Counted from the first letter of the stretch, positions 20,400 to 47,373 are shown. The stretch is DNA of 51,009 bases from an uncultured Deferribacteres bacterium (GCA_964464595.1 CAYXGW010000029.1:1-51009); one strand, 5' to 3'. The notes: generated by a model not told the origin, from the letters alone. Program-made: numbers and translations.

Positions 20400-20425
20400 A
20401 CTTATTCGACCAAATAGGTAATATT

Positions 20426-21148: not shown

Positions 21149-21152
21149 GAAA

Positions 21153-23036
21153 ATGACTTTTAATAAGAACATAAAAATCAAATTTCCAAATAAAAATTTA
21201 GATGCACTTTATTTTCTTGTTTTATTCTTTTTTACATTTCCACATTTTCTCTTTAGTCAGGATTTAACGCTGAAAACCTTAGTCGATCGCACGAAAGTAG
21301 CAACCAACCAACAATTCTCTTTAACAATTGAAATATCAGGAAAGGAAGCTCAATCCGTAGGAATTCCCAATCCACCGGATTTATCATCATTTGCCATTTT
21401 ATCCGGCAACTCAGGTACCACATCCAGTTTTCAGCTATTAAATGGCAGAATGTCAGTTTCAAAGAGTGCAACCTACAACTATATTGCGAGCACAGAAGGT
21501 GAATTTAATATTCCATCCATCTCGATTAATTTTAGCGGAAACACATATCGTTCAAGGCCAATTAAAATTGAAATCGTTAAGGGTACTACCCCGCCTTTAA
21601 CTGCTCGAAATCGGAGTTCAAGGAGTGGCGGTATTCAACCGGAAGGGGAGCTTGAAGGGAATTTGTATTTAGCCGCAGAAATCAATAAGAATACGGTTTT
21701 TAGAAATGAACCAATTGTCGTTACCTATAAAATTTATACCAGGGTTGAGGTGAGTAATTACAGCCTGATCAAATCGCCGGATCTGATCGGTTTTTGGACT
21801 GAAGATTTTGAGATTCCCAAGCAACCAAATACTTATGAAGAAATTATTGATGGTAAAAGATTTCTTGTAGCTGAAATCAAAAAGATTGCACTTTTTCCTA
21901 CCCAAACAGGGGAAAAAATTTTGGGGCCGATGGAAATAGATTGTGAAGTCCGGCTCAAAACACGAAGAAGAAGTCGTGATATTTTTGAGGATTTTTTTGA
22001 TAGTAGCAGTCTTTTTGGTCAAAGGGTTCGGACAACCATTACAAGTAAACCACTTAAAATTACGGTAAAACCCTTGCCTCTGGAGGGAAGACCTTCAGAT
22101 TTTAATGGTGTGGTTGGCAGTTTTAGTTGGAACGTATCTTTGGATAAGAATGAAGTATCCACCAACGAGGCGATTACTCTGAAGATGAAAATCAAAGGGA
22201 GAGGAAATATTAAAATATTGCCTGAGCCAAAATTTAAATTTCCTCAAGGGTTTGAAATGTATGAACCGGAAGTAAGCCAGAAAATAAATCGAACCGGTAA
22301 TGTAATAAGTGGTGAAAAAGTATACGAATATGTTTTTATTCCCAGGTTTGCAGGGACACACAGGATTAAGCCAATATCCTTTGTATATTTTGATCCAAAT
22401 TCTTTTTCTTATAAGAGGCTGGAAACACCTGAATTTGTAATCAAGGCCAAAGCTTCGACGGGAACGGGTGCGCCAATCACAAGCGGGTTAACTCGTGAAG
22501 AGATAAAATTCATAGGTAGGGATATTCGTTTTATTAAAGAAAGACCGGTTGAATTCCAGAAGATTGGCAATCATTTTCATAAATCATTTCTTTTTGGATT
22601 TTTAATTAGTATCCCCCTTGTTGCTTTTGGTGGCACATTATTATACCGCCAAAGGCAAGGAAAAATGGAAGTGAATGTCGCGTATGCAAGAAATCGGCGG
22701 GCGAATCAGATGGCGAAGAAAAAACTCGCAGGAGCCCACAAAATATTAAAACCCGATCACCAAAAAGAATTTTATGCTGAGATTTCAAAAGCTTTGCTTG
22801 GATTTATCTCTGACAAACTAAACCTATCAGCGGCTGGATTAAACAGTGATGAGGTTGAAGAAAAGCTGAAAGAAAGAAAAGTTAAAAAGGAAGTTGTTGC
22901 AGAGGTATTATCCATTGTTCAAGAGTGTGATTTCCAAAGATTTGCACCTTCGAATACTACGGTAGAAGATATGCAGCAATTCTATAATCGAGCGACTTCC
23001 GCAATATCTAACCTGGAAAAATCAGATCTTAGTTAA
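21153..23036 (+). CDS. batD: BatD (oxygen-tolerance) protein
   Basis: About 620 aa: signal peptide, large extracytoplasmic region, TM 'FLFGFLISIPLVAFGGTLLY', cytoplasmic C-terminus. Sits in the canonical batC-batD-batE position. The ATG at 21153 follows the batC stop. Confidence 0.8.
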   Translation: MTFNKNIKIKFPNKNLDALYFLVLFFFTFPHFLFSQDLTLKTLVDRTKVATNQQFSLTIEISGKEAQSVGIPNPPDLSSFAILSGNSGTTSSFQLLNGRMSVSKSATYNYIASTEGEFNIPSISINFSGNTYRSRPIKIEIVKGTTPPLTARNRSSRSGGIQPEGELEGNLYLAAEINKNTVFRNEPIVVTYKIYTRVEVSNYSLIKSPDLIGFWTEDFEIPKQPNTYEEIIDGKRFLVAEIKKIALFPTQTGEKILGPMEIDCEVRLKTRRRSRDIFEDFFDSSSLFGQRVRTTITSKPLKITVKPLPLEGRPSDFNGVVGSFSWNVSLDKNEVSTNEAITLKMKIKGRGNIKILPEPKFKFPQGFEMYEPEVSQKINRTGNVISGEKVYEYVFIPRFAGTHRIKPISFVYFDPNSFSYKRLETPEFVIKAKASTGTGAPITSGLTREEIKFIGRDIRFIKERPVEFQKIGNHFHKSFLFGFLISIPLVAFGGTLLYRQRQGKMEVNVAYARNRRANQMAKKKLAGAHKILKPDHQKEFYAEISKALLGFISDKLNLSAAGLNSDEVEEKLKERKVKKEVVAEVLSIVQECDFQRFAPSNTTVEDMQQFYNRATSAISNLEKSDLS

Positions 23037-23801
23037 ATGCTTATTCGAAAAACTATATTTCAATTTTGTCTATACTTTCTTTTAATATTTTGTGGCAATG
23101 TCTATGCAGATCATCAAGAGCATAAATTTAATGAGGCAAACCAGTTTTATCAAAATGGTCAGTATGAAGAAGCGATTAACGCTTACGAAGAAATTCTGGA
23201 AATGGGGTATGAAAGTGCAGAACTATATTATAATCTTGGTAATTCTCTTTATAAATTGGGAAAAAATCCTCGAGCGATTTTAAATTATGAGAGAGCTTTG
23301 CGACTGAAACCAAATGATGAAGATATCCAATTCAACTTACAAATTGCTAATTTACAAGTACTCGATAAGATTCCATCCATCCCAGAATTGTTTTATGTAA
23401 AATTCATTAATGAGATAGGGAATTATTTTAGCCTGCATTCACTTACATTGTTGACAATATTCATTTATATCTGTTTTTTTTCTTTTTTGATAATCTGGAT
23501 TCTAATTAAACCCGGTTCGCTCAAGAGAATATTTAAGACAATGTCATATGGACTTGGTATAATTCTAATCTTTTTTTCTTTCTTATTCATTTCCAAAGTA
23601 TCCCATAAAAGAGTTGATGCCATCGTTATGGAAAGTGAGATTGATGTTAGAAGCGCCCCATCCTCAGATGGAACTGAGATATTTAAAATTCATGAAGGCC
23701 TAAAAGTAAAAATAACGGATCGACGAGGTGATTGGATCGAGATCAGGCTTTCTGATGGAAAAGAAGGATGGCTTGAGTCTTTGACCATCGAAACAATTTA
23801 G
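23037..23801 (+). CDS. batE: BatE (TPR repeats, TM segments, C-terminal SH3b-like domain)
   Basis: TPR units ('YEEAINAYEEILEMGYES', 'NPRAILNYERALRLKPND'), two TMs, C-terminal 'GDWIEIRLSDGKEGWL' (SH3b-like). Confidence 0.75.
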   Translation: MLIRKTIFQFCLYFLLIFCGNVYADHQEHKFNEANQFYQNGQYEEAINAYEEILEMGYESAELYYNLGNSLYKLGKNPRAILNYERALRLKPNDEDIQFNLQIANLQVLDKIPSIPELFYVKFINEIGNYFSLHSLTLLTIFIYICFFSFLIIWILIKPGSLKRIFKTMSYGLGIILIFFSFLFISKVSHKRVDAIVMESEIDVRSAPSSDGTEIFKIHEGLKVKITDRRGDWIEIRLSDGKEGWLESLTIETI

Positions 23802-32471: not shown

Positions 32472-33137
32472 ATGGAGATAAATCTTCAAAAGATAGTTGT
32501 AGCTACCAATAATGAAGACAAATTGAATGAAATCAAAATGCTTCTTAATAATTTGGAACTAAATATTTTAAGTAAAAATGATTTTGTGAATTTTCCGGAA
32601 ATAGAAGAAACAGGGAAAAGTTTAAAAGCAAACGCGTTGCTAAAAGCAAAAGGAACATTTCAAGGGACGGGCTTACCATCAATAGCGGATGATACCGGGT
32701 TGGAAGTGTATGAACTAAACGGCGCTCCAGGGGTTTATTCGAGTCGATATGCAGGAACATTAGCGAGCTATGATGATAATGTGCAAAAACTACTAAATGA
32801 AATGAAAAATGTTCCTAAGGAAAGAAGAGGAGCTCAATTTCATTGCGTTATAGCTTTCGTTGATGGTGAACATGAGTTTACAGTTGAAGGTGTTTGCAAA
32901 GGAATAATTATTCATTCTCCACAAGGTAAAGACGGATTTGGCTATGACCCCATTTTTTTCGTCCCTGAATATGGAAAAACGTTTGCTGAAATGTCGCCTG
33001 AATTAAAAAATAGCATCAGCCATCGCGGAAAGGGTTTAACAAAAATTAATTCCTATTTATCCAAGTATTTTGAAGCAAAGGTTATTCATCAAAAAGTAAA
33101 TATTCAAACGAACAGTAATATAAACAAAATTGTTTGA
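32472..33137 (+). CDS. rdgB: Non-canonical purine NTP pyrophosphatase (RdgB/HAM1 family)
   Basis: 'KIVVATNNEDKLNEIK...GAPGVYSSRYAG...FGYDPIFFVPE...SHRG'. Confidence 0.9.
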   Translation: MEINLQKIVVATNNEDKLNEIKMLLNNLELNILSKNDFVNFPEIEETGKSLKANALLKAKGTFQGTGLPSIADDTGLEVYELNGAPGVYSSRYAGTLASYDDNVQKLLNEMKNVPKERRGAQFHCVIAFVDGEHEFTVEGVCKGIIIHSPQGKDGFGYDPIFFVPEYGKTFAEMSPELKNSISHRGKGLTKINSYLSKYFEAKVIHQKVNIQTNSNINKIV

Positions 33138-33179: not shown

Positions 33180-33256
<77 letters not shown>

Positions 33257-33320: not shown

Positions 33321-33599
33321 GTGTCGATATATTGTAAAAAATCAATTTATACATTGCCTACCTATAACGATATATTAAGAAATTATGTTGGAGCCGTAGG
33401 GAAACTAACCCGGTTTAAAGGCGAGTTCCATCGCTTCAGAGTTGCATTCAAGATTGCAGATCCGTCAGTAGTTAAAGATATGCGTAGCCAGGGAGCCGAG
33501 TTGTATACTCTTGTCGAAGTCGGCGACGATTATATTGCTTTTCAAACCTCTAATACTAAAGTGTACCTTCCAACGTCGACCGTAGTTTTAGAAGACTAA
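33321..33599 (+). CDS. Hypothetical small protein (up to 92 aa; alternative ATG at 33386)
   Basis: Open frame only. No recognisable motif and no strong RBS. Lies between the tRNA and the BMC locus. Confidence 0.3.
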   Translation: MSIYCKKSIYTLPTYNDILRNYVGAVGKLTRFKGEFHRFRVAFKIADPSVVKDMRSQGAELYTLVEVGDDYIAFQTSNTKVYLPTSTVVLED

Positions 33600-33630: not shown

Positions 33631-33718
33631 TTTGTCAATTAAAACTTGACAAAGTAATATTTTTTTAATACGTTTTGGACAAATGTTCAACATAAGTGAA
33701 CATATGTTCAAATGAACA
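33631..33718 (+). promoter_or_regulatory. Candidate operator region of the DeoR/SorC regulator: two palindromic elements upstream of and overlapping its start codon
   Basis: TTTGTCAA-n7-TTGACAAA at 33631-33653. Alternating TGTTCA/TGAACA half-sites at 33684-33718, including the perfect palindrome TGAACAtaTGTTCA. Confidence 0.45.
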
Positions 33719-34677
33719 AAAATATAAATCAAACACACATGATAGTAGAAGCAGCTCAATTATATTACGAGCATCAATTTAGTCAACAATTGATATCAAA
33801 GAAGTTGGGTATCTCCCGCCCCGGGGTATCTCGACTTCTAAAGCAAGCTCGAGATAAAGGTATTGTTAAGATTGAAGTTATCGATCCAACAAAAAAAGGG
33901 ACTCGATTAGAAGCAAAATTAAAAGAAAAATTTGGATTAAAAAAAGTTATAGTTGTCCCAATCGATACAGATTCTTCCCAAAGTATTAAGCAGATGCTGG
34001 GTAATGCAGCAGTTAAAATTCTGGAAGTATTGGTTGAAGATAACATGATTTTGGGGGTGTCTTGGGGAACTACTATGCAAGAAGTTGCCCGGCAAGTAAA
34101 TGTGAAAATGTTTAAAGATTTAATTGTAGTTCAACTAAACGGTGGGGTTTCACGTGCCGAATATGATACTCATGCTAGTGAAATTGCCTTGAAGATTGGT
34201 GAAAAATTCCATGCAATTCCATTTTTGCTTCCCTTGCCAGCGATTGTTGATAGCCCGGAAGTTAAAAAGGCCATTGTATCAGACAAAAATATCGCTCGAA
34301 CTTTAGATTTAGCTAAACAAGCAAAAGTAGCAATATTTACAATTGGCTCATTTGGGTTAGAGTCAGTTTTGGTAAAGGCTGACTATTTCGAACAAGATGA
34401 GATAGATGCCTTATTGAAACAAAAGGCAATTGCGGATGTTTGCTCAAGAATTATAGACTCTGAAGGTAATTTATGTTCAAGTGAGCTTAACTCTCGTACA
34501 ATAGGCATTGAAATCGAGGAATTACAAAAAAAACCTTATTCAATCGCGGTTGCAGGTGGCAAAGAAAAATTAAATGCGATTCAAGCTGGTTTAAAAGGAA
34601 AAATTTTCAATATTCTAATAACAGATGAATGGGTTGCCAAAGAGCTTTTGGAAATTGATACCGACGAAAGATACTAA
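33712..34677 (+). CDS. SorC/DeoR-family sugar-phosphate-responsive transcriptional regulator
   Basis: N-terminal HTH 'LISKKLGISRPGVSRLLKQARDKGIVKI' and a C-terminal sugar-binding (SorC-like) domain. First gene of the BMC locus. Confidence 0.85.
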   Translation: MNKNINQTHMIVEAAQLYYEHQFSQQLISKKLGISRPGVSRLLKQARDKGIVKIEVIDPTKKGTRLEAKLKEKFGLKKVIVVPIDTDSSQSIKQMLGNAAVKILEVLVEDNMILGVSWGTTMQEVARQVNVKMFKDLIVVQLNGGVSRAEYDTHASEIALKIGEKFHAIPFLLPLPAIVDSPEVKKAIVSDKNIARTLDLAKQAKVAIFTIGSFGLESVLVKADYFEQDEIDALLKQKAIADVCSRIIDSEGNLCSSELNSRTIGIEIEELQKKPYSIAVAGGKEKLNAIQAGLKGKIFNILITDEWVAKELLEIDTDERY

Positions 34678-34686
34678 AAAAATAAA

Positions 34687-36093
34687 ATGACCGCAAAGAA
34701 AAATATTAACATTGCAATTGGTTCTGATCATGGTGGTTTTGATCTCAAAGAAAATTTAAAAATATTTTTATCTGAGAAAGGCTATCAATTTTCTGATTGT
34801 GGGACGGATAGTAAAGAATCAGTAGATTATCCAAAATTTGCCTATGCGGTTGCTAATAAAATTGCAAATGATGAAGTACATTTCGGCATTATGATAGATG
34901 GCGCTGGTATAGGCTCTGCTATAGCAGCAAATAAGGTTAAAGGAGTTCGTGCAGCATCTTGCTACAATGTTCAAACTGCAAAAAATGCGCGAGAACACAA
35001 TAATGCAAATATGCTCACTTTGGGAGGTGGTTTAATAGAACCAGGGTTGGCTAGGCAAATCGTTGAAATATTTTTAACTACAGATTGTACTATCGATAGA
35101 CATTTGCGCCGAGTGCAAATGATCAATGAATTAGATAATACAATGCCACCAAACAAGTTATTAAAAGATAATAGTCTAACAAACAAGGAGAAAACCTTGA
35201 TAAATATTTCTAGTGCAGATCTTGCTAGAATTGCTGAAAGAGTGGGTGAATTAATCGTAGGTTCCAGTGAGAGTACACAAGGCGCGAATTGTGGAACGGA
35301 TATGGTGTGCGCATGCGGTATGTGTGTAGAGCGAAAGCCTGAAACCATTCGTAAATTCCTCAATTCCGGAGTTGAAAGAATCGGTTATCATGATGGAACT
35401 GGCTGTGAATGTGTACCTCAAGACATCGCGCATTGTATCGATCACACCTTGCTGAAACCTGATGCCATGGAAAAAGATGTCATACAGCTTTGTAATGAAG
35501 CGAGAGAATACAATTTTGCTACTGTGTGCATTAGTCCAAGTTATGTTAGGTTAGCGGCAAAACATCTTGCAGGAACCCGGGTTAAAGTCTGTACCGTTGT
35601 GGGTTTCCCATCGGGTGCACATTTACCAGAAATTAAAGCAATGGAAACGAGACAAGCAATCCGCGACGGCGCTAGTGAGATTGATATGGTCATCAATATT
35701 GGCGCTTTAAAAAGTGGAAATGATGACCTAGTCTACCGGGATATTCGCATGGTTTGTGAAGCATGCGAAGATGGAGGTGTAATCAGTAAAGTTATTATAG
35801 AGGCGGCTCTGTTATCAGATGATGAAAAGCTTCGAGCTTGCAATTTGGCAAAGATAGCTCGTGCAAATTTTGTTAAGACCTCTACCGGTTTTGGACCTCA
35901 TGGGGCTACAGCTGAAGATGTTTCTCTTATGAGCAGGGTAGTGCAGCAGTCAGGAATTGAAGTAAAAGCTGCAGGAGGTATTCGCGATTTAGAATCAGCA
36001 AAAGAAATGATTGCAGCGGGTGCAACTAGAATTGGGGCAAGTGCAGGCATCAAAATCTTGCAAGAAGCTAAATCAATTACAGTATCAAATTGA
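34687..36093 (+). CDS. Bifunctional fusion: RpiB/LacAB-family sugar-phosphate isomerase (aa 1-150), Cys-rich linker with an amphipathic helix (aa 151-245), then deoxyribose-phosphate aldolase DeoC/DERA (aa 246-468)
   Basis: RpiB: 'NIAIGSDHGGFDL...DYPKFAYAVA...GIMIDGAGIGSAIAANK'. Linker: 'ADLARIAERVGELIV' and 'CGTDMVCACGMCVERK...GTGCEC'. DERA: 'HCIDHTLLKPDA...ATVCISP...VGFPSG...FVKTSTGF' (Schiff-base Lys). Confidence 0.85.
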   Translation: MTAKKNINIAIGSDHGGFDLKENLKIFLSEKGYQFSDCGTDSKESVDYPKFAYAVANKIANDEVHFGIMIDGAGIGSAIAANKVKGVRAASCYNVQTAKNAREHNNANMLTLGGGLIEPGLARQIVEIFLTTDCTIDRHLRRVQMINELDNTMPPNKLLKDNSLTNKEKTLINISSADLARIAERVGELIVGSSESTQGANCGTDMVCACGMCVERKPETIRKFLNSGVERIGYHDGTGCECVPQDIAHCIDHTLLKPDAMEKDVIQLCNEAREYNFATVCISPSYVRLAAKHLAGTRVKVCTVVGFPSGAHLPEIKAMETRQAIRDGASEIDMVINIGALKSGNDDLVYRDIRMVCEACEDGGVISKVIIEAALLSDDEKLRACNLAKIARANFVKTSTGFGPHGATAEDVSLMSRVVQQSGIEVKAAGGIRDLESAKEMIAAGATRIGASAGIKILQEAKSITVSN

Positions 36094-36168
36094 AACGGAA
36101 TAAACAAAAACTGGTAAGGTTTTTACGAATGAAATTCAGTAACAATAATAAAATGAGGAGACAATCAA

Positions 36169-36789
36169 GTGGTTGATCTAAGAGCTTACGTATTTTTAGA
36201 TAAACTGCAGCCACAATATGCTGCATTTTTAGGAACAATAGCTCAGGGATTTTTACCGATTGCGGGTATGGCATCTTTATATATCGAAATATCTCCTGGC
36301 ATCGAAATTAACCGGATCACCGACATCGCTCTAAAATCTACCAATGTAACTCCGGGTATGCAGATTGTAGAAAGATTGTATGGCATGTTGGAAATCCACT
36401 CGGAATCCCAAGCAGATGTTCGTCAAGCGGGAAGGGCAATTCTGGATGCGCTTGAATTGAATGAAGAGGATCGGTGGAAACCGAAGATATTTTCCAAACA
36501 GGTCATTCGACGAATAGATGATCACCAGACCCAATTAATCAATCGGATGCGGCATGGTAACATGATAGTTCCCGGTGAAACACTTTTCGTTATGGAGGTT
36601 CAACCGGCGGCTTACGCAGCCCTGGCAGCAAACGAAGCAGAAAAAGCTTCGGAAATTAATATCTTAGAAGTCCGGTCGTTCGGTAGTTTTGGAAGAATTT
36701 ATTTGGGCGGAGAAGAACGGGATATAGATGTTGGTTGGCGCGCTGCCGTAAGGGCAATTGAAGAAGTTACAGGTAAAGAAAAAGAATAA
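36169..36789 (+). CDS. BMC shell protein, tandem/permuted BMC-domain type (BMC-T, EutL/PduB-like)
   Basis: 206 aa. '[25 protein letters not shown]' is a permuted-BMC N-terminus and a second BMC-like repeat lies in the C-terminal half. The gene sits among shell genes. Confidence 0.6.
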
Positions 36790-36844
36790 TGATTGAAATT
36801 TAGAATTCTCGTATTTACACCAAAATTATCTGGAGGTAATTAAG

Positions 36845-37156
36845 ATGGCTGAAGCATTAGGAATGATAGAAACACGTAGTTACCCGGCAATGGTAGAAGC
36901 AGCAGATGCAATGGTAAAGGCTGCAAAAGTTGAATTAGTGGCATTTCAAAATACAGGTGGGGGCTATGTTACCGCAGTTGTGCGTGGCGATGTAGCGGCT
37001 GTGAAAGCAGCTTGCGACGCCGGCAGGGCAGGCTCTGCGCGAGTGGGTGAAATTGTAGCAGTTCATGTCATTGCACGTCCTCATAACAATGTGGATGAGG
37101 TTTTACCATTGGGCCGACAAGAAGAAAGCAAGTCTCCGTCCAAGACTAAAAAATAA
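36845..37156 (+). CDS. BMC-H hexameric shell protein (PduA/EutM/CcmK-like)
   Basis: '[58 protein letters not shown]' is the canonical Pfam BMC-domain consensus. Confidence 0.95.
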
Positions 37157-37168
37157 TAGGGAGGCACA

Positions 37169-37468
37169 ATGGTTCTCGCTAAAGTTGTGGGTACTGTAGT
37201 ATCCACGCGTAAAGAGGAAAGTATGGAAGGACTTAAATTCCTTATCTTACAGCAAGTTGATTTGGATGGTAATAATAGCGGAGGCATTGTTGTCGCCGCC
37301 GATGCGGTTGATGCGGGAGTTGGCGAATTGGTCCTTTATGCCAGCGGCAGTTCAGCTCGTCAAACCATAAAAACAGATAAACGCCCATGTGATGCGGTTG
37401 TTATGGCTATTGTGGATAATTGGGAAGTTGGTGGTAATATTAAATATAAAAAAGGCATTGATGATTAG
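37169..37468 (+). CDS. BMC-P pentameric vertex protein (EutN/CcmL/PduN family), paralog 1
   Basis: '[31 protein letters not shown]...[26 protein letters not shown]'. Confidence 0.9.
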
Positions 37469-37543
37469 TGTATTTTAGTATCCAGTTTTTAATGAAAATA
37501 GCGGTTAATGACAATGAACGAAAAATGTTTATGAAGGTGTAGT

Positions 37544-38998
37544 ATGTCACAGCTAACCCAAGAACAAGTAGATTTGATTGCTTCGCAAGTAGCAACCCTG
37601 ATAAAAGGCAAGCCCAATCAAACCACTTTGTCTCAAGCAACTTCTCACCAGACCTCAAATCCTCAGACCGCGAGTATGGGTGTATTTCCTGATATTGATT
37701 CAGCAGTGGCTGCAGCGAATCATGCTCATCTGCAATTGATGTCAATGACTCTACAAAAACGCAATGATATTATAGCGAGCATCCGAAAAAAAATGTTGGA
37801 GCACACTGAGGAATTGGCCAAACAAGCGCATGCAGAAACGGGGCTCGGAAGAGTTGAAGATAAAATTGCAAAAAATCGCTTAGTGACTGAAAAAACACCA
37901 GGTACAGAAGCCCTGGAACCAGTAGCTTATTCCGGAGATCGAGGATTAACTTTAATGGAGTTGGCTCCTTATGGTGTTATTGGAGTCATTACACCAACTA
38001 CTAATCCGACTTCAACGATTATCTGTAATACCATTGGCATGGTAGCGGCTGGCAACGCGGTTGTGTTTAATGTCCATCCTGGAGCAAAACAGGTAAGTGT
38101 TTACAACGTTGAGCTCTTAAATGAAGCTATAACAGAAGTCGGCGGACCTGCAAATTTGGTCACCACAATAGCTGATCCAACCATTGCAAGCGCTCAAGAG
38201 CTAATGACTCATAGTGGAGTTCGGCTATTGGTTGTTACCGGGGGCGCTGGTGTTGTCAAAGCAGCAATGACCAGTGGAAAACGGGCGATCTGTGCCGGGC
38301 CTGGAAATCCTCCCGTTGTAGTAGATGAAACTGCCGACATTGAAAAAGCTGCGAAGTCGATCATTGTTGGTGGGTCCATGGACAATAATATTATTTGTGT
38401 GGATGAAAAGGAAGTCTTCGTTGTTGAATCCGTAGCCGATCAATTAATTGCAGCCCTTGCGCAAGTAGATGCAATCATTTTAACTCCGGAGCAAGTTCAA
38501 CAAATAGAAAAAGTTATTTTTACAGAAAACCGTGGACCGGGCAAACCGGGAGTAATGTGTAAGGACTATATTGGGAAAAATATCAACATCATTCTTGCTA
38601 AAATTGGTTTGCAGGTAGAGAATAAAATTCGATTAGCCATAGCTCCTGTCCCTCAAGACCATCCTTTGGTGTGGAGTGAACAGATGATGCCAATTATGCC
38701 GGTAGTACGCATGCCAAATGTGGATGCGGCAATCGATATTGCAAAAGAAGCTGAGCATGACTTTCGCCATACTGCGGTCATGCATTCGCGGAATTTAGAT
38801 AACCTGAGCCGGATGGCGAAATTAATGAATTGTAGCATTTTTGTAAAAAATGGACCTTCCGTAGCGGGGCTTGGTTATGGTGGTGAAGGGTTTTGCTCAT
38901 TTTCCATAGCGAGTCCGACGGGAGAAGGCTTAACGAACCCAAGAAGTTTTTCAAGAGAAAGACGTTGTGTTTTGGTCGATCATTTTAGAATAGTATGA
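37544..38998 (+). CDS. CoA-acylating aldehyde dehydrogenase (PduP/EutE-like) with an N-terminal encapsulation-peptide-like amphipathic helix
   Basis: ALDH fold with catalytic Cys in 'ICVDEKE' and 'GPGNPPVVVDETAD'. The N-terminal 'LTQEQVDLIASQVATLIKG' amphipathic helix is followed by a polar linker. Confidence 0.85.
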   Translation: MSQLTQEQVDLIASQVATLIKGKPNQTTLSQATSHQTSNPQTASMGVFPDIDSAVAAANHAHLQLMSMTLQKRNDIIASIRKKMLEHTEELAKQAHAETGLGRVEDKIAKNRLVTEKTPGTEALEPVAYSGDRGLTLMELAPYGVIGVITPTTNPTSTIICNTIGMVAAGNAVVFNVHPGAKQVSVYNVELLNEAITEVGGPANLVTTIADPTIASAQELMTHSGVRLLVVTGGAGVVKAAMTSGKRAICAGPGNPPVVVDETADIEKAAKSIIVGGSMDNNIICVDEKEVFVVESVADQLIAALAQVDAIILTPEQVQQIEKVIFTENRGPGKPGVMCKDYIGKNINIILAKIGLQVENKIRLAIAPVPQDHPLVWSEQMMPIMPVVRMPNVDAAIDIAKEAEHDFRHTAVMHSRNLDNLSRMAKLMNCSIFVKNGPSVAGLGYGGEGFCSFSIASPTGEGLTNPRSFSRERRCVLVDHFRIV

Positions 38999-39002
38999 TA
39001 AT

Positions 39003-39614
39003 ATGATGAATAGATACCCGGCACTTGCCTTAATCGAATATTCTAGCATTGCAACCGGAATTTATTGCGGTGATGCAATGGTAAAACGTGCACCCATTAC
39101 AGTCCTCAAATCAGGAACAGTCCATCAAGGGAAATTTCTTGTGCTCATTGGCGGAAGTGTAGCTGCTGTTGAAGAATCCTACGAAGAAGGTCTTGCAATG
39201 GGTGGAGATTCTGTAATAGACAAAGTATTTCTACCATTTGTTCATACCCAGGTTCATGATGCAATTTTGGGAAAACGGCAGCCTTGTTCAAATGATGCTG
39301 TTGGAGTGATAGAAACAAACACCGTTGCTGCTACGATTCAATCGGCGGATGCTGGAGTAAAAGGCGCAGATGTAACTATTGTAGAAATCAGGTTGGCAGA
39401 TGACATTGGTGGAAAAGCAATAGCTGTTTTCAATGGAAAATTGGAAGAAGTAGAAGCCGCTGTCATGATTGCGAAAGACCAGGTCACAGAACAAGAACAT
39501 TGGCTTGGAGATGTAATAATTCCGAGAATACATGCTGAAATGGCTCATCAAATCGAACAGTCTACCAGTTTTGCTAATGTAGATCTCAATCAAGTTGAAG
39601 GGTTTGAGGTCTAA
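39003..39614 (+). CDS. BMC-T shell protein (two tandem BMC domains, PduT-like)
   Basis: Domain 1 'ALIEYSSIATGIYCGDAMVKRAPITVL...', domain 2 'VGVIETNTVAATIQSADAGVKGADVTIVEI...'. 203 aa. Confidence 0.8.
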   Translation: MMNRYPALALIEYSSIATGIYCGDAMVKRAPITVLKSGTVHQGKFLVLIGGSVAAVEESYEEGLAMGGDSVIDKVFLPFVHTQVHDAILGKRQPCSNDAVGVIETNTVAATIQSADAGVKGADVTIVEIRLADDIGGKAIAVFNGKLEEVEAAVMIAKDQVTEQEHWLGDVIIPRIHAEMAHQIEQSTSFANVDLNQVEGFEV

Positions 39615-39896
39615 ATGCTGCTTGGTAAAGTCATAGGAACATTAACGCCTTGCGTAGTTTATGAAGGACTGGAAGGTGTCCCATTGCTTTTAATTCAACC
39701 TCTCGATAAAAATAAAAACAAAACCGGCACACCACTTGTTGCTGCAGATTCAACCAGAATGGCAGGTCCTGATGAACTTATCTATTACGAAGGTGGAAGG
39801 GAAGCAGCGATGGCGTTGGAACCATGGTTTGTGCCTATAAACCATACAATTATCGGGATCGTTGATGGCGTTCATTTACTTGATTTGGAGGACTAA
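39615..39896 (+). CDS. BMC-P vertex protein, paralog 2
   Basis: 'MLLGKVIGTLTPCVVYEGLEGVPLLLIQPLD...PLVAADSTRMAGPDELIYYEGG'. The start abuts the upstream stop. Confidence 0.85.
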   Translation: MLLGKVIGTLTPCVVYEGLEGVPLLLIQPLDKNKNKTGTPLVAADSTRMAGPDELIYYEGGREAAMALEPWFVPINHTIIGIVDGVHLLDLED

Positions 39897-40190
39897 ATGA
39901 TTTTGGGCCGCATCAGCGGAGCTATTCATTCGACAATAAATCATGATTTTTATGACAACAAAAGACTTCTAATTGTTGACCTGCTAAACATTGACGGGAA
40001 GCCAACTGGCAAGTATTTAATCGCAGTTGATTCAGTAGATGCCGGCGTGGGTGAAACGGTGCTAGTGATAGACGAAGGCAATTCGGCCAGGCAGATCCTG
40101 GATGATGCACTGGCACCGATAAGATCTATTATCGTCGGCATTGTTGATGAAGTGCATTTACCAGGCATAATTAATTCTTTTAATTTGTAG
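39897..40190 (+). CDS. BMC-P vertex protein, paralog 3
   Basis: 'MILGRISGAIHSTINHDFYDNKRLLIVDL...YLIAVDSVDAGVGETVLVIDEGNSARQ'. The start abuts the upstream stop. Confidence 0.85.
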   Translation: MILGRISGAIHSTINHDFYDNKRLLIVDLLNIDGKPTGKYLIAVDSVDAGVGETVLVIDEGNSARQILDDALAPIRSIIVGIVDEVHLPGIINSFNL

Positions 40191-40495
40191 GACAAAATAT
40201 CTTGGTCAGATTATCACTTAACCTTTTATCAACTTCAACTAATGTGTAAAAACATTTATTAGCAATGGATCAAAATAGATTTTATATGAATTTCCCAAAA
40301 GACCAATTCATGTCATCCCGTCGTGGACGGAATCTCGTTAATAAACAACAACTTACGTTATGTCTAAGTAGATTCCTCCTGAATGACATTAGATGTTTAT
40401 TTGTGTTTTGTAGAAATATGTTATGTTTTCAGTCAGTCTCACATTTACCGGGGATCTATTTTATATCATGCTAACCTTGTTGAAAGATTACTAAA

Positions 40496-41143
40496 ATGTT
40501 TACAGATTGGGAAGCAAGGCGACAGATCGTCAGTTTTGGTAAAAAGACATATGAAAAGGGTTTGGTAGCCGCGACAGATGGTAATATTTCGGTCCGAATG
40601 ATGTCTGACCGATTCATGATAACACCCAGTGGAGTTCCTCTTTCGGATCTTGATTTAAATGATCTTGTCTATGTTAATTTAGACGGACAGGTTTTGCAGG
40701 GGCGAAAAAAGCCATCCTCCGAATTACCGATGCATCTGGAAATTTACCGGCAACGTCCCGAAATGAATGCAGTCATTCACGCCCATCCGCCCACAACTGT
40801 TGCATTTACAATAGCCGGGGAGACTTTTATTCAGCCGGTATTACCGGAACTTGTCGTTCTATTCGGTGAAATTCCCATCGCCACCTATGCTACTCCCGCC
40901 ACAGAAGAAAGCGCTAACTCCATTCGTGATTTAATTCCAAATAATGATGTAATTGTTTTAGATCACCATGGTGCCGTAACTGTAGGTAAGTCCCTGGATG
41001 ACGCCTTTGCAAAAATGGAAAAATTAGAGCATTCTTCAATCACGTTATTAGCAGCAAAACAAATTGGCCGCATCAATCCTTTAGAGCCTTCCGACGTCCG
41101 CAAACTTGAAAAGATGCGTAAAGAGAAGGGGTATAGCAATTAA
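40496..41143 (+). CDS. Class II aldolase/adducin-family protein (FucA/AraD-like)
   Basis: 'DGNISVRM...ITPSG...ELPMHLEIYRQRPEMNAVIHAHPP', metal-binding His cluster. Confidence 0.85.
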   Translation: MFTDWEARRQIVSFGKKTYEKGLVAATDGNISVRMMSDRFMITPSGVPLSDLDLNDLVYVNLDGQVLQGRKKPSSELPMHLEIYRQRPEMNAVIHAHPPTTVAFTIAGETFIQPVLPELVVLFGEIPIATYATPATEESANSIRDLIPNNDVIVLDHHGAVTVGKSLDDAFAKMEKLEHSSITLLAAKQIGRINPLEPSDVRKLEKMRKEKGYSN

Positions 41144-41480: not shown

Positions 41481-42029
41481 ATGCGTATTCAAATCAACAA
41501 AAGCGCAATTCACATCATGCAGGGAGATATCACGCATCAAAATACGGATGCTATTGTGAATGCTGCAAATAATTCATTAATGGGTGGCGGTGGTGTTGAT
41601 GGCGCCATTCATCGGGCAGGCGGACCTGAAATATTGGCAGAAAACAAGAAAATAGTAAAAGAAAAAGGACCGTTACCAACCGGTGAGGCAGTTATTACTA
41701 CTGCAGGCAAAATGCCATCAAAGTATGTGATTCACACCGTCGGACCCATCTATAAAAATGGTGCCTCAGGAGAAGCGGAATTGTTGACCAATGCATATCG
41801 GAATAGCCTTGTTTTAGCGGCAGAAAAACAACTTGAATCGATCAGTTTTCCTTCTATCAGTACCGGTGTTTTTGGCTATCCAATTCCTGATGCAGCTGAT
41901 ATTGCCATTGAAAGTGTGATTCAATTTCTAAGAGAGAATGTTCAAATAAAATTGGTACGATTCGTCCTATTTGACGATCGCACTTTCTTGTCTTATCAGC
42001 AAGCATTAAACAAGATTGGGAAAGACTGA
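41481..42029 (+). CDS. Macro-domain protein (O-acetyl-ADP-ribose deacetylase / ADP-ribose-binding, YmdB-like)
   Basis: 'IMQGDITHQNTDAIVNAANNSLMGGGGVDGAIHRAGG...FPSISTGVFGYP'. Confidence 0.85.
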   Translation: MRIQINKSAIHIMQGDITHQNTDAIVNAANNSLMGGGGVDGAIHRAGGPEILAENKKIVKEKGPLPTGEAVITTAGKMPSKYVIHTVGPIYKNGASGEAELLTNAYRNSLVLAAEKQLESISFPSISTGVFGYPIPDAADIAIESVIQFLRENVQIKLVRFVLFDDRTFLSYQQALNKIGKD

Positions 42030-42057
42030 TACCGACTAACCTGAAGAATTCTTAGGC

Positions 42058-42089
42058 ACAAAGTAACAAAGTAACAAAGTAACAAAGTA
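42058..42089. repeat. Tandem repeat (ACAAAGTA)x4, intergenic
   Basis: Four perfect 8-bp units read directly. Confidence 0.9.
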
Positions 42090-42248
42090 TTGAATAGAAA
42101 GAAGAAAATAAGTTTTATCATATAAATTGAAAAAAGCTCAGTTTTTAGTGGTAGTTTTTCTAAGTTATATAATCTTGTGTCTCAGATCTTGGTGGCAGAA
42201 ATTATAAATAACGCAGGCTAATTTAAACAACATAAACGAGGTAATTTT

Positions 42249-42749
42249 GTGAAAATCTATATTTCAAAATTGGAATCACCTTTTGGCATTATTTATTTGG
42301 CATCCTCTGATGATGGCCTGGTTCAGATTGGACTATCAACAGAAGAGAAATTTTTGGTTGAATTGAATAAAAAATATCCCAAGTCACAAATTGAAGAGAA
42401 CGATGCTAAAAACGAAATGGCATTGCAACAGCTTAAAGATTACTTTAGTGGAGAACGAAACGAGTTTTCTGTTCCGATTAGATTGGCCGGAACTGAATTT
42501 CAAAAGAAAGTATGGAATGAACTGCTAAAAATCCCTTATGGCCAAACGATTTCCTATGGAGAAATCGCCAGAAATATCGGCAATCCGAAAGCGGTAAGAG
42601 CGGTAGGTTTGGCGAATAATCGGAATCCTGTCTCAATTATTGTCCCATGCCATCGCGTTATAGGAGCAAACGGGAAATTGGTAGGGTATGGTGGTGGTTT
42701 GGATATGAAAGAAAATTTGCTTAGATTAGAGGGAGCTTTGTTGGCCTGA
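42249..42749 (+). CDS. ogt: Methylated-DNA-protein-cysteine methyltransferase
   Basis: Active-site 'PCHRV' and 'GYGGGL'. GTG start. Confidence 0.9.
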   Translation: MKIYISKLESPFGIIYLASSDDGLVQIGLSTEEKFLVELNKKYPKSQIEENDAKNEMALQQLKDYFSGERNEFSVPIRLAGTEFQKKVWNELLKIPYGQTISYGEIARNIGNPKAVRAVGLANNRNPVSIIVPCHRVIGANGKLVGYGGGLDMKENLLRLEGALLA

Positions 42750-42797
42750 CATAACTAACTTCAGGATTAAATCACGAGTATTAGGAGATATAATTAG

Positions 42798-42977
42798 ATG
42801 GAGACTTTAAAACAAGAAGCGCTTGAAGCAATCTCAAAGTTACCTGAAAGTGCTGAAATTGATGATATAATGTACCGAATTTATGTTATTGATAAAGTAA
42901 GAAAAGCAAAGAAATCTATCAATGATGGCGAATCGATAAGTATTGAAGATCTTAAAAAAGAAATAGAATCAAGGTAA
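42798..42977 (+). CDS. Small antitoxin-like protein (59 aa; 'addiction module component' type)
   Basis: 'METLKQEALEAISKLPESAEIDDIMYRIYVIDKVRKAKKSINDGESIS'. Not in the ORF track (under 60 aa). Immediately precedes a ParE-like reading frame. Confidence 0.5.
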   Translation: METLKQEALEAISKLPESAEIDDIMYRIYVIDKVRKAKKSINDGESISIEDLKKEIESR

Positions 42978-42979
42978 TA

Positions 42980-43369
42980 TGGTCTTCCCCTGCAAAAGAG
43001 GACTTAAAGATTATTTATGATTACATTGCGAAAGATTCTAAAGTCTATGCAAAAAAAGTAGTTGAAAGAATTGTTGAAACTACGGAAAAGCTAAATGAAT
43101 TTCCAAAAATAGGTAGAATGGTTCCTGAGATTGATAGTCAAAACGTGAGAGAGCTATTCATCTATTCCTATCGAATTATTTACCAAATAGCCCAAAATAG
43201 AATTGAGATTCTTATAATGTTCATAGTAAAAGAGATTTCTCTTCAGGAATTCTTAAATAAAAAATTAAATACCATTACAATTAAAAACTTTAACCGGAGA
43301 AATAATGCAATATGGCATAGTCAAGAATTGGGATTCATCACGGGGATATGGATTCATTGTTACGGATGA
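42980..43369 (+). pseudogene. RelE/ParE-family toxin-like reading frame without a canonical start codon in the expected position. 3' boundary uncertain: overlaps the csp gene.
   Basis: The frame encodes 'WSSPAKEDLKIIYDYIAKDSKVYAKKVVERIVETTEKLNEFPKIGRMVPEI...ELFIYSYRIIYQIAQNRIEILIMFIVKE' (ParE-like). The frame is open from 42956 but has no ATG/GTG/TTG before 43118. Confidence 0.4.
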
Positions 43370-43511
43370 TGATGAAGATATATTTGTGAACGTAATTGAT
43401 CTGGACATCACCATAAAAAAAAGAGGACTTCAAGAGGGTGACAAGGTTTCTTTTGATGTTCGCAGTGATCTGAAAGGTGAGAAAGCCATAAATGTACGGT
43501 TGGCCCATTGA
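43305..43511 (+). CDS. Cold-shock domain protein (CspA family)
   Basis: 'GIVKNWDSSRGYGFIVTDDDEDIFVNV' matches the RNP1-like motif of cold-shock domains. Confidence 0.8.
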   Translation: MQYGIVKNWDSSRGYGFIVTDDDEDIFVNVIDLDITIKKRGLQEGDKVSFDVRSDLKGEKAINVRLAH

Positions 43512-43529
43512 GACAGTTTTGGAGGATCT

Positions 43530-44360
43530 TTGCCAGAATTACCTGAAGTTGAAACTGTACGCCAGGGTTTAATTCAGGCAGTATTGAATAGAAAAATTAA
43601 GGATGTTGAAATCTTTCAACCGCAATTACGGTTTCCAGTTCCGGTTGAAAAATTGCAGAGGGGAATCATTGGTTGTGAATTTCGATCTATCCAAAGAAGA
43701 GCCAAATACTTATTACTCGAATTGAATAATGGTTTATCGCTTATTGTCCATTTGGGTATGAGTGGGCGATTATTTGTAACCTCTCATAACAGCAAAATAG
43801 ATAAACATGACCACATCATTTTCAGGCTTGAAGGAGGAGATCATCTACGATTTCGTGACCCCCGGAGGTTTGGAATGATCGATATTTATCCTTCTGATGA
43901 TTTGGAGAATCACGCCAGGTTAAAGGAACTCGGTGTCGAGCCTTTAACATCTGACTTTGATAATAATTATTGTTTAAAAAAAGGTAAAAATTCCAAAAGA
44001 CCCATAAAAAATATGTTAATGGATGCATCCTTTGTGGTCGGTTTGGGAAATATCTACACAAGCGAAGCGCTTTATGATGCAAAAATTCACCCCGCTCGAG
44101 CATCAAATTTACTAACAAAGAAACAGTGGAAAATGCTAATTGGTTCGATTCAATCTGTTCTTAAAGAAGCCATTGTTCAGGGTGGAACTACCTTACAGGA
44201 TGAAGGATTTAAAAATGTTTTAGGATCAGGTGGCATGTTCCAGTTAAAACTAAAAGTATATGGAAAAGCAGGTGAGCCCTGTGAAACTTGTGGCCATTCG
44301 ATTATCAGGTTGGTTCAACAAGGAAGAGGTAGTTTTTTTTGTAAAAAATGTCAACGGTAA
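43530..44360 (+). CDS. mutM: Formamidopyrimidine-DNA glycosylase (Fpg/MutM)
   Basis: N-terminal 'PELPEVETV' (catalytic Pro after the initiator), H2TH, C-terminal zinc finger 'CETCGHSI...CKKCQ'. TTG start. Confidence 0.9.
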   Translation: MPELPEVETVRQGLIQAVLNRKIKDVEIFQPQLRFPVPVEKLQRGIIGCEFRSIQRRAKYLLLELNNGLSLIVHLGMSGRLFVTSHNSKIDKHDHIIFRLEGGDHLRFRDPRRFGMIDIYPSDDLENHARLKELGVEPLTSDFDNNYCLKKGKNSKRPIKNMLMDASFVVGLGNIYTSEALYDAKIHPARASNLLTKKQWKMLIGSIQSVLKEAIVQGGTTLQDEGFKNVLGSGGMFQLKLKVYGKAGEPCETCGHSIIRLVQQGRGSFFCKKCQR

Positions 44361-45646: not shown

Positions 45647-45732
45647 TTGTGTTTAAAGATAAAAAACATACTATTTTTGATAATTCCATTTTAATGATAT
45701 ATATTAAAAGCTAAAAGTTGAATGGATTTTTT

Positions 45733-47373
45733 ATGAAGCATAAAACCAAATTAACATTACTTTTTCTTTTCATTTTCTCATCCAATAATAATGCGCAGCA
45801 GAAGTCTACATGGGAAATTATACAAGATAAAATCTTAACGCCTACCTGTACGAGTTGTCATGTTGCAGGATCTTCTTTTGCCATTCAATCCGGGTTGGTT
45901 TTAACCAAGGATGTTGCTTATAAAAATATAGCAAATCGCACGCCTAACAATGAAGCAGCAAGGAGCGATGGATTATTGCTGGTGGGTAATAAAGGGCTGG
46001 AAAGTCTTTATAAAAGCTATTTGTGGGAAAAAATTGATGCTATCGATCAGGAACATTTTTATTCGGATCATCCGTACTATGGTTCCTTAATGCCTTTGGG
46101 GGCGCCACCTCTTACAAATGGACAATTAAAATTTATAAGAGAATGGATACTTGCCGGAATCCCTGAAACCGGAATTGTGGCAGATGAATCCATTCTTGAA
46201 GATATGAGTCGATTTGAAATTCCTGAGTTCCAGGCATTGGCAGCACCTGAACACGGTGTGCAACTTCATCTTGGCCCTTTCGACGTTCAAACCAATTTTG
46301 AAAGAGAATTTTTTTATTACCTGCCGCTGAATAATAATGAGGAGATTTTTATAAATCGTATTGAAATAAATATGCGGCGAGGTAGCCATCATTTTATTGC
46401 ATATCAATTTAATTCTGAAATCCCTGATTATTTAATCCCCCAGGCGAATGTTATTCGAGATATTCGTAACAGTGACGGAAGCTATAATATTTTAAATTTA
46501 TTAGCCACGCCATTTCATACTTTTGTTACTGGTACGCAATGGCCAATCTTGAATTATCATTTACCCCCGGGGGTAGCCTTAAGACTACCGGCCAATATCG
46601 GATTGGATCTAAATCTACACTACGTAAATAGAACTGATGAGATCATGCAAGGTGAAATATATGCAAATTTACACTTTGTAGAACCTCAGAATGTTGTTCA
46701 TGAAGCAAAGGCACTTAATCTTGGGAAATTTGATATAGAACTTCCCCCTCACCAAGTTACTACTTTAACTAAAACATTTACATTTTGGGAGACTAGACAT
46801 ATCTTCCAGCTATTTTCTCATGCACATGAGCATATGACAGAATTTAGAGTTGAGATTGATGGAGGTCCTAGGAATGGAGAGCTTGTCTATATCACTTACG
46901 ATTGGGAACACCCGCCTATTCTGGAATTAGATCCCCCATTAGTCATAGAAGAAGGCCAGGGTTTAAAACTAATCACAACGTATAATAATTGGACAGATCG
47001 TACTTTAAATTTTGGCTTGCGTAGTGATGATGAAATGATGATTCTGTTTGGGGCATATTACTTGAAAAAGGCCACGGGTGTTGATGATAATGAGCGAGGT
47101 AACCTGCCTGAAGTTTTTACCTTGGAGCAGAATTATCCAAACCCATTTAATCCACAAACTACGATCAGTTACAAATTGCCTCAACAAACTCAGGTCAATT
47201 TGGCTATTTATGATATAACAGGGAGAGTGGTTGAACAATTATTTGATGGTACCCAGCCTGCGGGAATCCATCAAATCATTTGGAACGCAAATGGCGCCCC
47301 ATCTGGCATGTATATTGTTAGAATTAAAACGGATAGTTTTCAGTCTATGCGGAAAATGCTGTACTTGAAGTAA
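45733..47373 (+). CDS. Secreted PHM/DBH-like copper type II monooxygenase fold, fused to an N-terminal mono-haem cytochrome c domain and a C-terminal T9SS sorting domain
   Basis: Signal peptide. 'CTSCH' haem-c motif with downstream 'SLMPLG'. 'GSHHFIAY' (HH), 'LHYV', 'HAHEHM' (HxH), 'SDDEMMILFGAYY' (Met-ligand region). T9SS CTD 'NYPNPFNPQTTISY...GMYIVRIKT'. Confidence 0.6.
   Translation: MKHKTKLTLLFLFIFSSNNNAQQKSTWEIIQDKILTPTCTSCHVAGSSFAIQSGLVLTKDVAYKNIANRTPNNEAARSDGLLLVGNKGLESLYKSYLWEKIDAIDQEHFYSDHPYYGSLMPLGAPPLTNGQLKFIREWILAGIPETGIVADESILEDMSRFEIPEFQALAAPEHGVQLHLGPFDVQTNFEREFFYYLPLNNNEEIFINRIEINMRRGSHHFIAYQFNSEIPDYLIPQANVIRDIRNSDGSYNILNLLATPFHTFVTGTQWPILNYHLPPGVALRLPANIGLDLNLHYVNRTDEIMQGEIYANLHFVEPQNVVHEAKALNLGKFDIELPPHQVTTLTKTFTFWETRHIFQLFSHAHEHMTEFRVEIDGGPRNGELVYITYDWEHPPILELDPPLVIEEGQGLKLITTYNNWTDRTLNFGLRSDDEMMILFGAYYLKKATGVDDNERGNLPEVFTLEQNYPNPFNPQTTISYKLPQQTQVNLAIYDITGRVVEQLFDGTQPAGIHQIIWNANGAPSGMYIVRIKTDSFQSMRKMLYLK

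Follow-up and report, generated by a model that had tools for sequence, protein, structure and literature searches.

The DNA analysed here (hereafter the window, 51,009 nt in total) comes from an uncultured Deferribacteres bacterium (GCA_964464595.1 CAYXGW010000029.1:1-51009) and carries a bacterial microcompartment (BMC) locus of ten consecutive open reading frames (ORFs) on the plus strand, spanning 33712-41143. The stretch under study starts at 33631, that is, 81 nt upstream of the ATG of the regulator gene, and includes a predicted operator. A first-pass annotation made from the sequence alone had listed the ten same-strand genes as a DeoR/SorC regulator, a fusion of RpiB with deoxyribose-5-phosphate aldolase (DERA), three kinds of shell proteins (BMC-T, BMC-H and BMC-P), an acylating aldehyde dehydrogenase (AldDH) and a class II aldolase, and had assigned the locus to the DERA-centred, sugar-phosphate-utilising (SPU) class. 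All ten were recovered as listed in the ORF listing of the window, and in the Pfam scan each product scores above the gathering score of its family; this holds also for the profiles that had been proposed as a check of the shell and enzyme calls (PF00936, PF03319, PF01791, PF02502 and PF00171). The features are the following.

33676-33710, no strand: predicted operator, two 14-bp palindromes (motif search)
33712-34677, plus strand: SorC/DeoR-like regulator, 321 aa (PF04198, 250 bits)
34687-36093, plus strand: RpiB-DERA chimera, 468 aa (PF02502, 177 bits; PF01791, 77 bits)
36169-36789, plus strand: CcmP-like, double-layer BMC-T, or BMC-T(dp), 206 aa (PF00936, 25.9 bits)
36845-37156, plus strand: BMC-H, 103 aa (PF00936, 95.1 bits)
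37169-37468, plus strand: BMC-P 1, 99 aa (PF03319, 101 bits)
37544-38998, plus strand: CoA-acylating AldDH, 484 aa (PF00171, 120 bits)
39003-39614, plus strand: PduT-like, single-layer BMC-T, or BMC-T(s), 203 aa (PF00936, 109.5 bits)
39615-39896, plus strand: BMC-P 2, 93 aa (PF03319, 59 bits)
39897-40190, plus strand: BMC-P 3, 97 aa (PF03319, 79 bits)
40496-41143, plus strand: class II aldolase, 215 aa (PF00596, 175 bits)

The first nine genes are separated by gaps of 0-75 nt and the tenth, the aldolase gene, follows after 305 nt. All ten ORFs are intact and the catalytic and structural residues of their products are kept. Our results make it likely that the locus is an intact SPU-type metabolosome operon, most similar to subtype SPU3, that it belongs to an FCB-superphylum (Fibrobacteres-Chlorobi-Bacteroidetes) bacterium related to KSB1, and that it works by the mechanism proposed below.

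Three PF00936 proteins and three PF03319 proteins (gathering scores 24.5 and 25, respectively) are encoded within 4 kb, which marks the region as a microcompartment locus. The weak PF00936 score of the first BMC-T is expected, because this protein is a permuted double-layer trimer. It had been called a permuted BMC-T in the first-pass annotation, and comparison with CcmP bears this out: it reaches 284 bits against the CcmP structures 5lsr and 4ht5, 245 bits against the Haliangium trimer HO-5816 and 338.6 bits against the NCBIfam CcmP model, for which the cut-off is 340. The Glu-Arg pair in its QIVERLYG motif, which we take from the CcmP and CsoS1D literature to be the gating residues, is invariant in 20 loci. 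The second BMC-T matches PF00936 over two stretches, as tandem domains do, and scores 121-122 bits against the PduT structures 3pac and 3n79. Its His40 (window 39120-39122), invariant in all 16 homologs, aligns with the Cys of the PduT motif TICPGKF, presumably the Fe-S ligand Cys38; if this identity is right, three His40 residues would face the central pore of the BMC-T(s) trimer. The BMC-H is EutM-like at 121 bits, which is under the cut-off of that model. Its pore-adjacent motif (aa ~31-37, window 36935-36955) reads FQNTGGG, whereas YEKTGGG is found in 19 of 19 other loci; the Glu-Lys pair of the latter is thus lost in the BMC-H of the window. The BMC-P triplet is complete, with three PF03319 genes, and BMC-P 2 starts directly at the stop of the BMC-T(s) gene. 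On one related contig (L001), the full BMC-P 3 gene is closely preceded by two extra fragments of ~25 aa (15382-15456 and 15527-15601; 80% identity to BMC-P 3), which could reflect a tandem duplication or an assembly artefact.

The chimera consists of an RpiB-like domain (aa 8-150), an amphipathic helix (176-192), a Cys-rich segment (202-250) and a DERA barrel (245-460). The aldolase domain scores 281 bits against the TIGR00126 deoC equivalog (cut-off 117) and 257 bits against the solved DERA 8qps, and is ~60% identical to characterised DERAs; all 60 homologs compared keep its DERA motif residues D333, K397 and K427. The RpiB-like domain is altered. Asp71 aligns with the catalytic Cys of the RpiB enzymes of T. 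maritima and C. thermocellum, and this position is occupied by Asp in 57 and by Asn in three of the 60 homologs, while the RpiB His104 is present in all 60. Deoxyribose-5-phosphate (dR5P) lacks the 2-OH and cannot be a substrate of RpiB; DERA hence needs no isomerase ahead of it. It is more likely that the RpiB-like domain serves as a scaffold than that it isomerises ribose-5-phosphate as an RPI (the isomerase of this sugar phosphate) would; the scaffold role has been put forward as a guess for the RPIs of SPU loci, in all of which the catalytic Cys66 is replaced by Asp and His99 is kept (PMC11585597).

Two encapsulation-peptide-like helices had been noticed at the outset, and both were recovered. 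These calls are based on amphipathicity, conservation and predicted helix formation, from which targeting is inferred. In the chimera, the helix at 176-192 is conserved and has the highest hydrophobic moment of the protein (0.71). An AlphaFold model built on the alignment of 60 sequences has two confident domains joined by a linker of low confidence, in which residues 176-189 and 218-226 are helical. The chimera starts 9 nt after the stop of the regulator gene, which leaves no room for an encapsulation peptide in front of the RPI domain. In the AldDH, the N-terminal helix LTxxQVDxIAxxVA (aa ~4-22) is kept across 17 loci and is a putative encapsulation peptide; the linker of ~25 residues between it and the catalytic domain (aa ~23-44) varies. 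The AldDH itself is of the EutE type (NCBIfam PRK15398, 655.6 bits, cut-off 403) and retains the catalytic Cys in DNNIICVDEKE. Among solved structures it scores best against 5jfl (456 bits), titled 'Aldehyde dehydrogenase' in the database, which we take to be a microcompartment AldDH from R. palustris.

SPU loci are defined by DERA together with AldDH, and DERA within a shell locus is exclusive to this class (PMC11585597). The features common to SPU are present here: DERA, an acylating AldDH, an RpiB with the Cys to Asp replacement and the retained His, and the BMC-P triplet. Those that point to SPU3 are present as well, namely the RPI-DERA fusion with an inter-domain helix, a CcmP-like BMC-T(dp) next to a BMC-T(s), the lack of a phosphotransacylase (PTAC) and the N-terminal peptide of AldDH. 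According to the published survey, the chimera occurs in 20 SPU3 loci and the CcmP-like BMC-T(dp) in SPU2 and SPU3. Every subtype has the BMC-P triplet and one or more BMC-T(s), PTAC is found essentially in SPU1, SPU4 and SPU7 only, and the encapsulation peptide of AldDH is N-terminal in all subtypes except SPU6 (PMC11585597). Our assignment to SPU3 rests on gene content and protein architecture rather than on the colour clades of shell proteins. No match to PTAC (PF06130) was found among the window ORFs of at least 150 aa; for four of these (DnaK, ClpB, HtrA and a sodium transporter) the scan used NCBIfam models alone. Among the ORFs scanned across the window there is no B12 diol dehydratase, ethanolamine ammonia-lyase or glycyl-radical enzyme and activase, that is, no signature enzyme of the PDU, EUT or GRM types, and the assignment to the DERA-centred class is supported on each feature examined. 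The same scan gave no PduS homolog, triosephosphate isomerase or alcohol dehydrogenase, which are frequent but not defining accessories of SPU loci.

Closest to the present locus is SPU3 as described (PMC8217296, PMC11585597), in which the RPI domain is likewise N-terminal in the chimera and the inter-domain helix is the likely encapsulation peptide. The AlphaFold model obtained here agrees with the published model of an SPU3 chimera, which comes from a Verrucomicrobia metagenome-assembled genome (MAG). The class II aldolase, an occasional accessory in SPU3, is present in our locus; in contrast, the PduS homolog, frequent in all SPU subtypes but SPU6, is missing from the window. The Marinimicrobia SPU locus (PMC4207490) shares the DeoC-RpiB fusion, AldDH, the lack of a PduL PTAC and a host from an FCB-related candidate phylum. 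It differs in that it is a single-cell fragment, whereas the locus described here is complete on a 51-kb contig and its host is nearer to KSB1 as judged by ClpB. The only SPU proteins studied biochemically are DERA and RPI of SPU6 from Chloroflexi bacterium GWB2_54_36; the purified DERA cleaves dR5P, the RPI is almost inactive on ribose-5-phosphate (R5P), and a DERA-RPI complex was seen (PMC11585597). They have the same DERA catalytic triad and the same RPI replacement of Cys by Asp as the chimera, in which the association seen as a complex in SPU6 is fixed as a fusion. In SPU6, on the other hand, DERA and RPI are separate and each has its own N-terminal extension, the AldDH peptide is C-terminal, BMC-T(dp) belongs to a different clade, BMC-H belongs to the pink/fuchsia clades, and the regulator of the model locus is of the GntR/UTRA type instead of SorC/DeoR-like. 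With one BMC-H, BMC-T proteins of both the single- and the double-layer kind and three BMC-P, the shell inventory resembles that of Haliangium ochraceum; the BMC-T(s) scores 91 bits against 5dih, titled 'Microcompartments protein' in the database and presumably the Haliangium trimer BMC-T1. Unlike our locus, the main Haliangium locus has no DERA and has three BMC-T proteins instead of two.

A scan with one genome per GTDB species returned 26 loci that encode the fusion at 60-71% identity, and the MAG labels of these are mostly Neomarinimicrobiota, with Calditrichia, Zixibacteria, Fraserbacteria, Bacteroidota and others also represented. The order regulator, chimera, BMC-T(dp), BMC-H, BMC-P, AldDH, BMC-T(s), BMC-P, BMC-P is the same on every contig long enough to show it, and this nine-gene core occurs in at least 20 MAGs, mostly of FCB-related phyla. 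In a large protein collection, the best 120 matches to the chimera are all PF02502 and PF01791 fusions of 453-484 aa, several of them named Candidatus Marinimicrobia, which are the nearest named homologs of the window chimera. Near-identical or close loci with the same flanks are found in independent assemblies (L028, L029, L035, which is GCA_022571655.1, and L036). As for the host, the window ClpB shares 94% identity with a protein labelled 'candidate division KSB1 bacterium', with Calditrichaeota next among the named sources at 72%, and a protein with a type IX secretion system (T9SS) sorting tail is encoded at 45718-47373. KSB1 is a neighbour of SAR406 within the FCB superphylum (PMC9012183), and the proposed FCB-group, T9SS-bearing host is thus supported.

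The same annotation had considered an SPU compartment in such an organism notable, which does not hold. The name SPU dates from 2014 and was based on Atribacteria, Gemmatimonadetes and Marinimicrobia, studied as single-cell genomes, and in the last of these the aldolase was already described as fused to the isomerase, with PTAC missing (PMC4207490); more than 280 SPU loci in 26 phyla have since been counted (Sutter et al. 2021, PMC8217296). The core recurs in MAGs labelled Neomarinimicrobiota, Calditrichia, Zixibacteria and others. The host is a typical SPU3 carrier, and SPU3 in the FCB neighbourhood is the rule and no surprise. The statement that the class has essentially no experimental characterisation holds for shells, physiology and SPU3 proteins, which are still unstudied, but not for DERA and RPI of SPU6, which were studied in vitro (PMC11585597).

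Upstream of the first gene, two palindromes, TGGACAAATGTTCA (33676-33689) and TGAACATATGTTCA (33697-33710), lie 21 bp apart and end 2 nt before the ATG of the regulator. A search of the whole window with TGAACANNTGTTCA, allowing at most one mismatch, gave two matches, which are this pair, against a chance expectation of 0.25. Of 24 related loci from several phyla, 22 have at least one site of this type immediately upstream of their SorC gene, and in 17 of those 22 the pair has the same 21-bp spacing; elsewhere in the 24 loci the motif was matched only three times. The pair is probably the operator of an autoregulated operon to which the SorC/DeoR-like protein binds. The best solved relative of the regulator is the deoxyribonucleoside regulator of B. 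subtilis, 8r7y (258 bits). The dra-nupC-pdp regulon of B. subtilis DeoR offers a parallel, with a regulator of the SorC family, DERA as the key enzyme of the operon and a palindromic operator at the promoter. The regulator gene comes first in the operon described here, which its product probably represses.

The following mechanism is proposed. The DeoR-like SorC repressor encoded by the first gene would bind the two palindromes, which overlap the promoter/start region, and a sugar phosphate, likeliest dR5P, would release it. A shell would then be assembled from one BMC-H, the PduT-like BMC-T, the gated, CcmP-like double-layer BMC-T and the three BMC-P paralogs, and amphipathic helices would recruit two cargoes to it, the chimera through its internal helix and AldDH through its N-terminal helix. 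Inside the shell, DERA would cleave dR5P to glyceraldehyde-3-phosphate, which would exit to glycolysis, and acetaldehyde, which AldDH would trap as acetyl-CoA with reduction of NAD+. This chemistry had been anticipated in the first-pass annotation and is supported by the families and residues of both enzymes. Because the locus encodes neither a phosphotransacylase nor an alcohol dehydrogenase, CoA, acetyl-CoA and NAD(H) would have to cross the shell, presumably by way of the large and gated pore in the CcmP-like trimer. A BMC-T(dp) is typical of SPU types that lack PTAC, and its large gated pore has been proposed as a cofactor route (PMC11585597). The steps expected to supply dR5P from deoxynucleosides are those of a mutase and a nucleoside phosphorylase. 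Genes for a mutase of the PGM/PMM family (a candidate phosphopentomutase) and a pyrimidine-nucleoside phosphorylase flank or adjoin related SPU3 operons, at the following positions.

L030, 1600-12136: mutase/phosphorylase neighbours
L032, 1-10645: mutase/phosphorylase neighbours
L018, 907-4200: mutase/phosphorylase neighbours
L033, 8507-11991: mutase/phosphorylase neighbours

In L018 and L033 the two genes cluster together with a class II aldolase. Neither they nor PTAC were found elsewhere in the window, so the feeder genes, if present, must be located elsewhere in the genome.

Several points weigh against this proposal. No nucleoside phosphorylase, phosphopentomutase, deoxyribokinase or transporter was found next to the locus in the window. 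The route of cofactor recycling is unexplained, and cleavage of dR5P alone does not account for the conserved RpiB-like domain and the class II aldolase; being highly conserved, the RpiB-like domain may possess a hidden isomerase activity. The regulator differs from B. subtilis DeoR in two respects: it scores 367.5 bits against the NCBIfam model of Bacillus-type DeoR (NF053881), under the cut-off of 420 for that equivalog, and it has Asn in the motif VVQLNGG (aa ~138-144, window 34120-34140) where DeoR has Lys (VVQLKGG). All 25 homologs compared have this Asn. The Lys aligned to it is K146 of chain 8r7y, which by our count is native K141 and which we take to be the Schiff-base Lys that binds dR5P. 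Because of the score below the cut-off and the invariant Asn in place of Lys, the effector of the regulator, or the mode of its binding, may differ from that in DeoR, where dR5P is covalently bound (PMC11229326). Finally, a shell or in vivo function of SPU has so far been demonstrated for no subtype, and the published biochemistry concerns SPU6, not SPU3 (PMC11585597).

The class II aldolase, which is of the FucA/DrdA-like, DHAP-dependent kind (DHAP, dihydroxyacetone phosphate), is considered separately. None of the NCBIfam models reaches its cut-off with this protein. The best solved relative is DrdA, a 5-deoxyribulose-1-phosphate aldolase (6btd, 104 bits, versus 89 bits for FucA), which releases acetaldehyde and DHAP, and the catalytic Glu and three His ligands are kept. 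PF00596 enzymes are aldolases of the FucA/RhaD/AraD type and not fructose-1,6-bisphosphate aldolases. It therefore seems unlikely that the enzyme makes fructose-1,6-bisphosphate, as has been proposed for class II aldolases of SPU loci (PMC11585597). Orthologs with 58-88% identity are located directly after BMC-P 3 in L029, L030 (Calditrichia), L032 (bacterium BMS3Abin05) and L035, and within the mutase-aldolase-nucleoside phosphorylase cluster a few kb from the operon in L018 and L033, and they are missing from most Neomarinimicrobiota-labelled loci with the same core. The aldolase thus recurs beside the operon but does not belong to its core. Its alignment with unencapsulated homologs spans the full length, which leaves no terminal extension or encapsulation peptide, and the motif search of the 51-kb window gave no copy of the operator in front of it; for these two reasons it is probably a cytosolic accessory enzyme.

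It could nevertheless be argued that the aldolase is a second source of aldehyde, which would cleave a ketose-1-phosphate (5-deoxyribulose-1-phosphate, ribulose-1-phosphate or fuculose/rhamnulose-1-phosphate) to DHAP and acetaldehyde, glycolaldehyde or lactaldehyde, to be consumed by the same AldDH. The recurrence beside BMC-P 3 or in the mutase-phosphorylase clusters, the reaction of DrdA and the conserved ligands are consistent with this, as is the fact that class II aldolases are the aldehyde-generating signature enzymes of the PVM and GRM5 types and also occur in 'SPU-like' loci. The aldolases of SPU5 and ACI, however, carry C-terminal encapsulation peptides, whereas the one described here has none; the 305-nt gap and the missing operator copy set it apart from the operon, most Neomarinimicrobiota-labelled loci with the same core do without it, the margin of DrdA over FucA is small while the NCBIfam cut-offs are not reached, and no isomerase of the ribose-1-phosphate type that would make the ketose-1-phosphate lies nearby. 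We regard a second source of aldehyde as unlikely. Another reading concerns the substrate itself, which could be a different sugar phosphate if the RpiB-like domain were an active isomerase with Asp as its base and the fused aldolase acted on its product. The conservation of this domain (His104, and Asp71 in 57 of 60) seems to exceed the needs of a pure scaffold, and the regulator lacks the Lys that we assume to bind dR5P covalently in DeoR. In addition, RpiB of M. tuberculosis works with Glu in place of Cys, RpiB is promiscuous, and rare sugar phosphates were outside the published assays (PMC11585597). The evidence on DERA points the other way, as the domain exceeds the deoC equivalog cut-off by far (281 versus 117 bits) and shares ~60% identity with characterised DERAs; the missing 2-OH of dR5P makes an upstream isomerase step needless, the phosphopentomutase-like and nucleoside phosphorylase genes beside related loci point to (deoxy)nucleosides, and the sole tested SPU DERA cleaves dR5P while the sole tested SPU RPI is inactive on R5P (PMC11585597). 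A substrate other than dR5P is thus very unlikely. It is hardly credible that we see a remnant, decaying or silent, or a locus of another type (Haliangium, PVM-like or MIC): the cofactor-recycling core and the feeder enzymes are indeed missing from the window, but the ten ORFs are intact with their catalytic and structural residues, different phyla share the gene order and the operator, several independent assemblies contain near-identical loci, DERA is exclusive to SPU (PMC11585597), and the absence of PTAC is typical of SPU3.

The linker of the chimera deserves attention in its own right. Its cysteines C208, C210, C242 and C250 are conserved at 93-100% (56-60 of 60 homologs) in the segment aa 202-250 (window 35290-35436), and the position of C250 is occupied by Met in ordinary DERAs. 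These four could form a metal or redox site, as far as conservation is a guide. A full Fe-S motif of the CxxC type was considered and rejected, as several of the Cys vary in the smaller GTDB set and just four are conserved at 93% or more in the 60 homologs. The cysteines are not mentioned in the SPU paper (PMC11585597). It is a doubtful but conceivable extension that SPU3 is more than a compartment converting dR5P to acetyl-CoA, in which the DrdA/FucA-like aldolase would provide a second entry for 1-phosphorylated pentuloses derived from nucleosides or 5'-deoxyadenosine and the site at C208/C210/C242/C250 would control packaging or activity of the chimera. Neither the second-entry idea nor the metal or redox idea was found in the SPU literature consulted.

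What is described here is a known microcompartment type, catalogued since 2014 and common in uncultured marine and sediment relatives, whose architecture and taxonomic range are already known. The small additions are the operator pair, the Cys-rich linker segment, the replacement of Lys by Asn in the regulator and the recurrent DrdA-like aldolase. SPU compartments are among the most widespread metabolosome types and are thought to let anaerobes in detritus-rich habitats use deoxyribose derived from DNA while acetaldehyde is contained. The SPU3 operon of the window is compact and complete, appears to be functional, and has a predicted operator as well as putative cargo-targeting helices; it would be a convenient template for work on the shell, on encapsulation and on cofactor recycling without PTAC or alcohol dehydrogenase.

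The base composition of the locus differs from its surroundings. GC is 0.41-0.435 over the locus versus ~0.35 for the rest, while GC at third codon positions is 0.27-0.42, slightly above the 0.20-0.32 of most other window genes. Because the latter is raised so little, the rise is attributed mostly to amino acid composition (Ala- and Gly-rich shell proteins), and recent horizontal transfer, which the GC rise had brought up, was dropped. Neither the 305-nt gap before the aldolase gene nor the region upstream of the operon yielded a riboswitch or another RNA element; Rfam (E≤1) matched the tRNA alone. Terminator and promoter scans gave counts equal to those in shuffled sequence, and the sigma-70 consensus may not apply to the phylum of the host.

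The locus is flanked by genes of nucleotide and DNA housekeeping, which may be coincidence: upstream lies RdgB/Ham1 (32472-33137), and downstream (41481-44360) are genes for a macro domain protein, MGMT, a cold-shock protein and Fpg. The same flanks are seen in L029, L035 and L036. Farther upstream in the window are a one-strand cluster for heat shock and protein quality control (2698-12650: GrpE, a DnaJ-like protein, HtrA/DegP, a GWxTD-domain protein, DnaK and ClpB) and a complete aerotolerance operon of the Bat type (14397-23801: MoxR AAA ATPase, DUF58, two unassigned ORFs, BatA/VWA, VWA, TPR, BatD and TPR-SH3). The sole tRNA of the window, tRNA-Pro(TGG), is located at 33180-33256, 455 nt upstream of the regulator gene; no integrase or flanking direct repeats were seen near it. 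Between this tRNA and the regulator lies a small ORF (33321-33599, 81-92 aa depending on the choice of start) that has no Pfam match. It is conserved with 84% identity in L010, and an ORF of 81 aa occupies the same place in L029 and L035.

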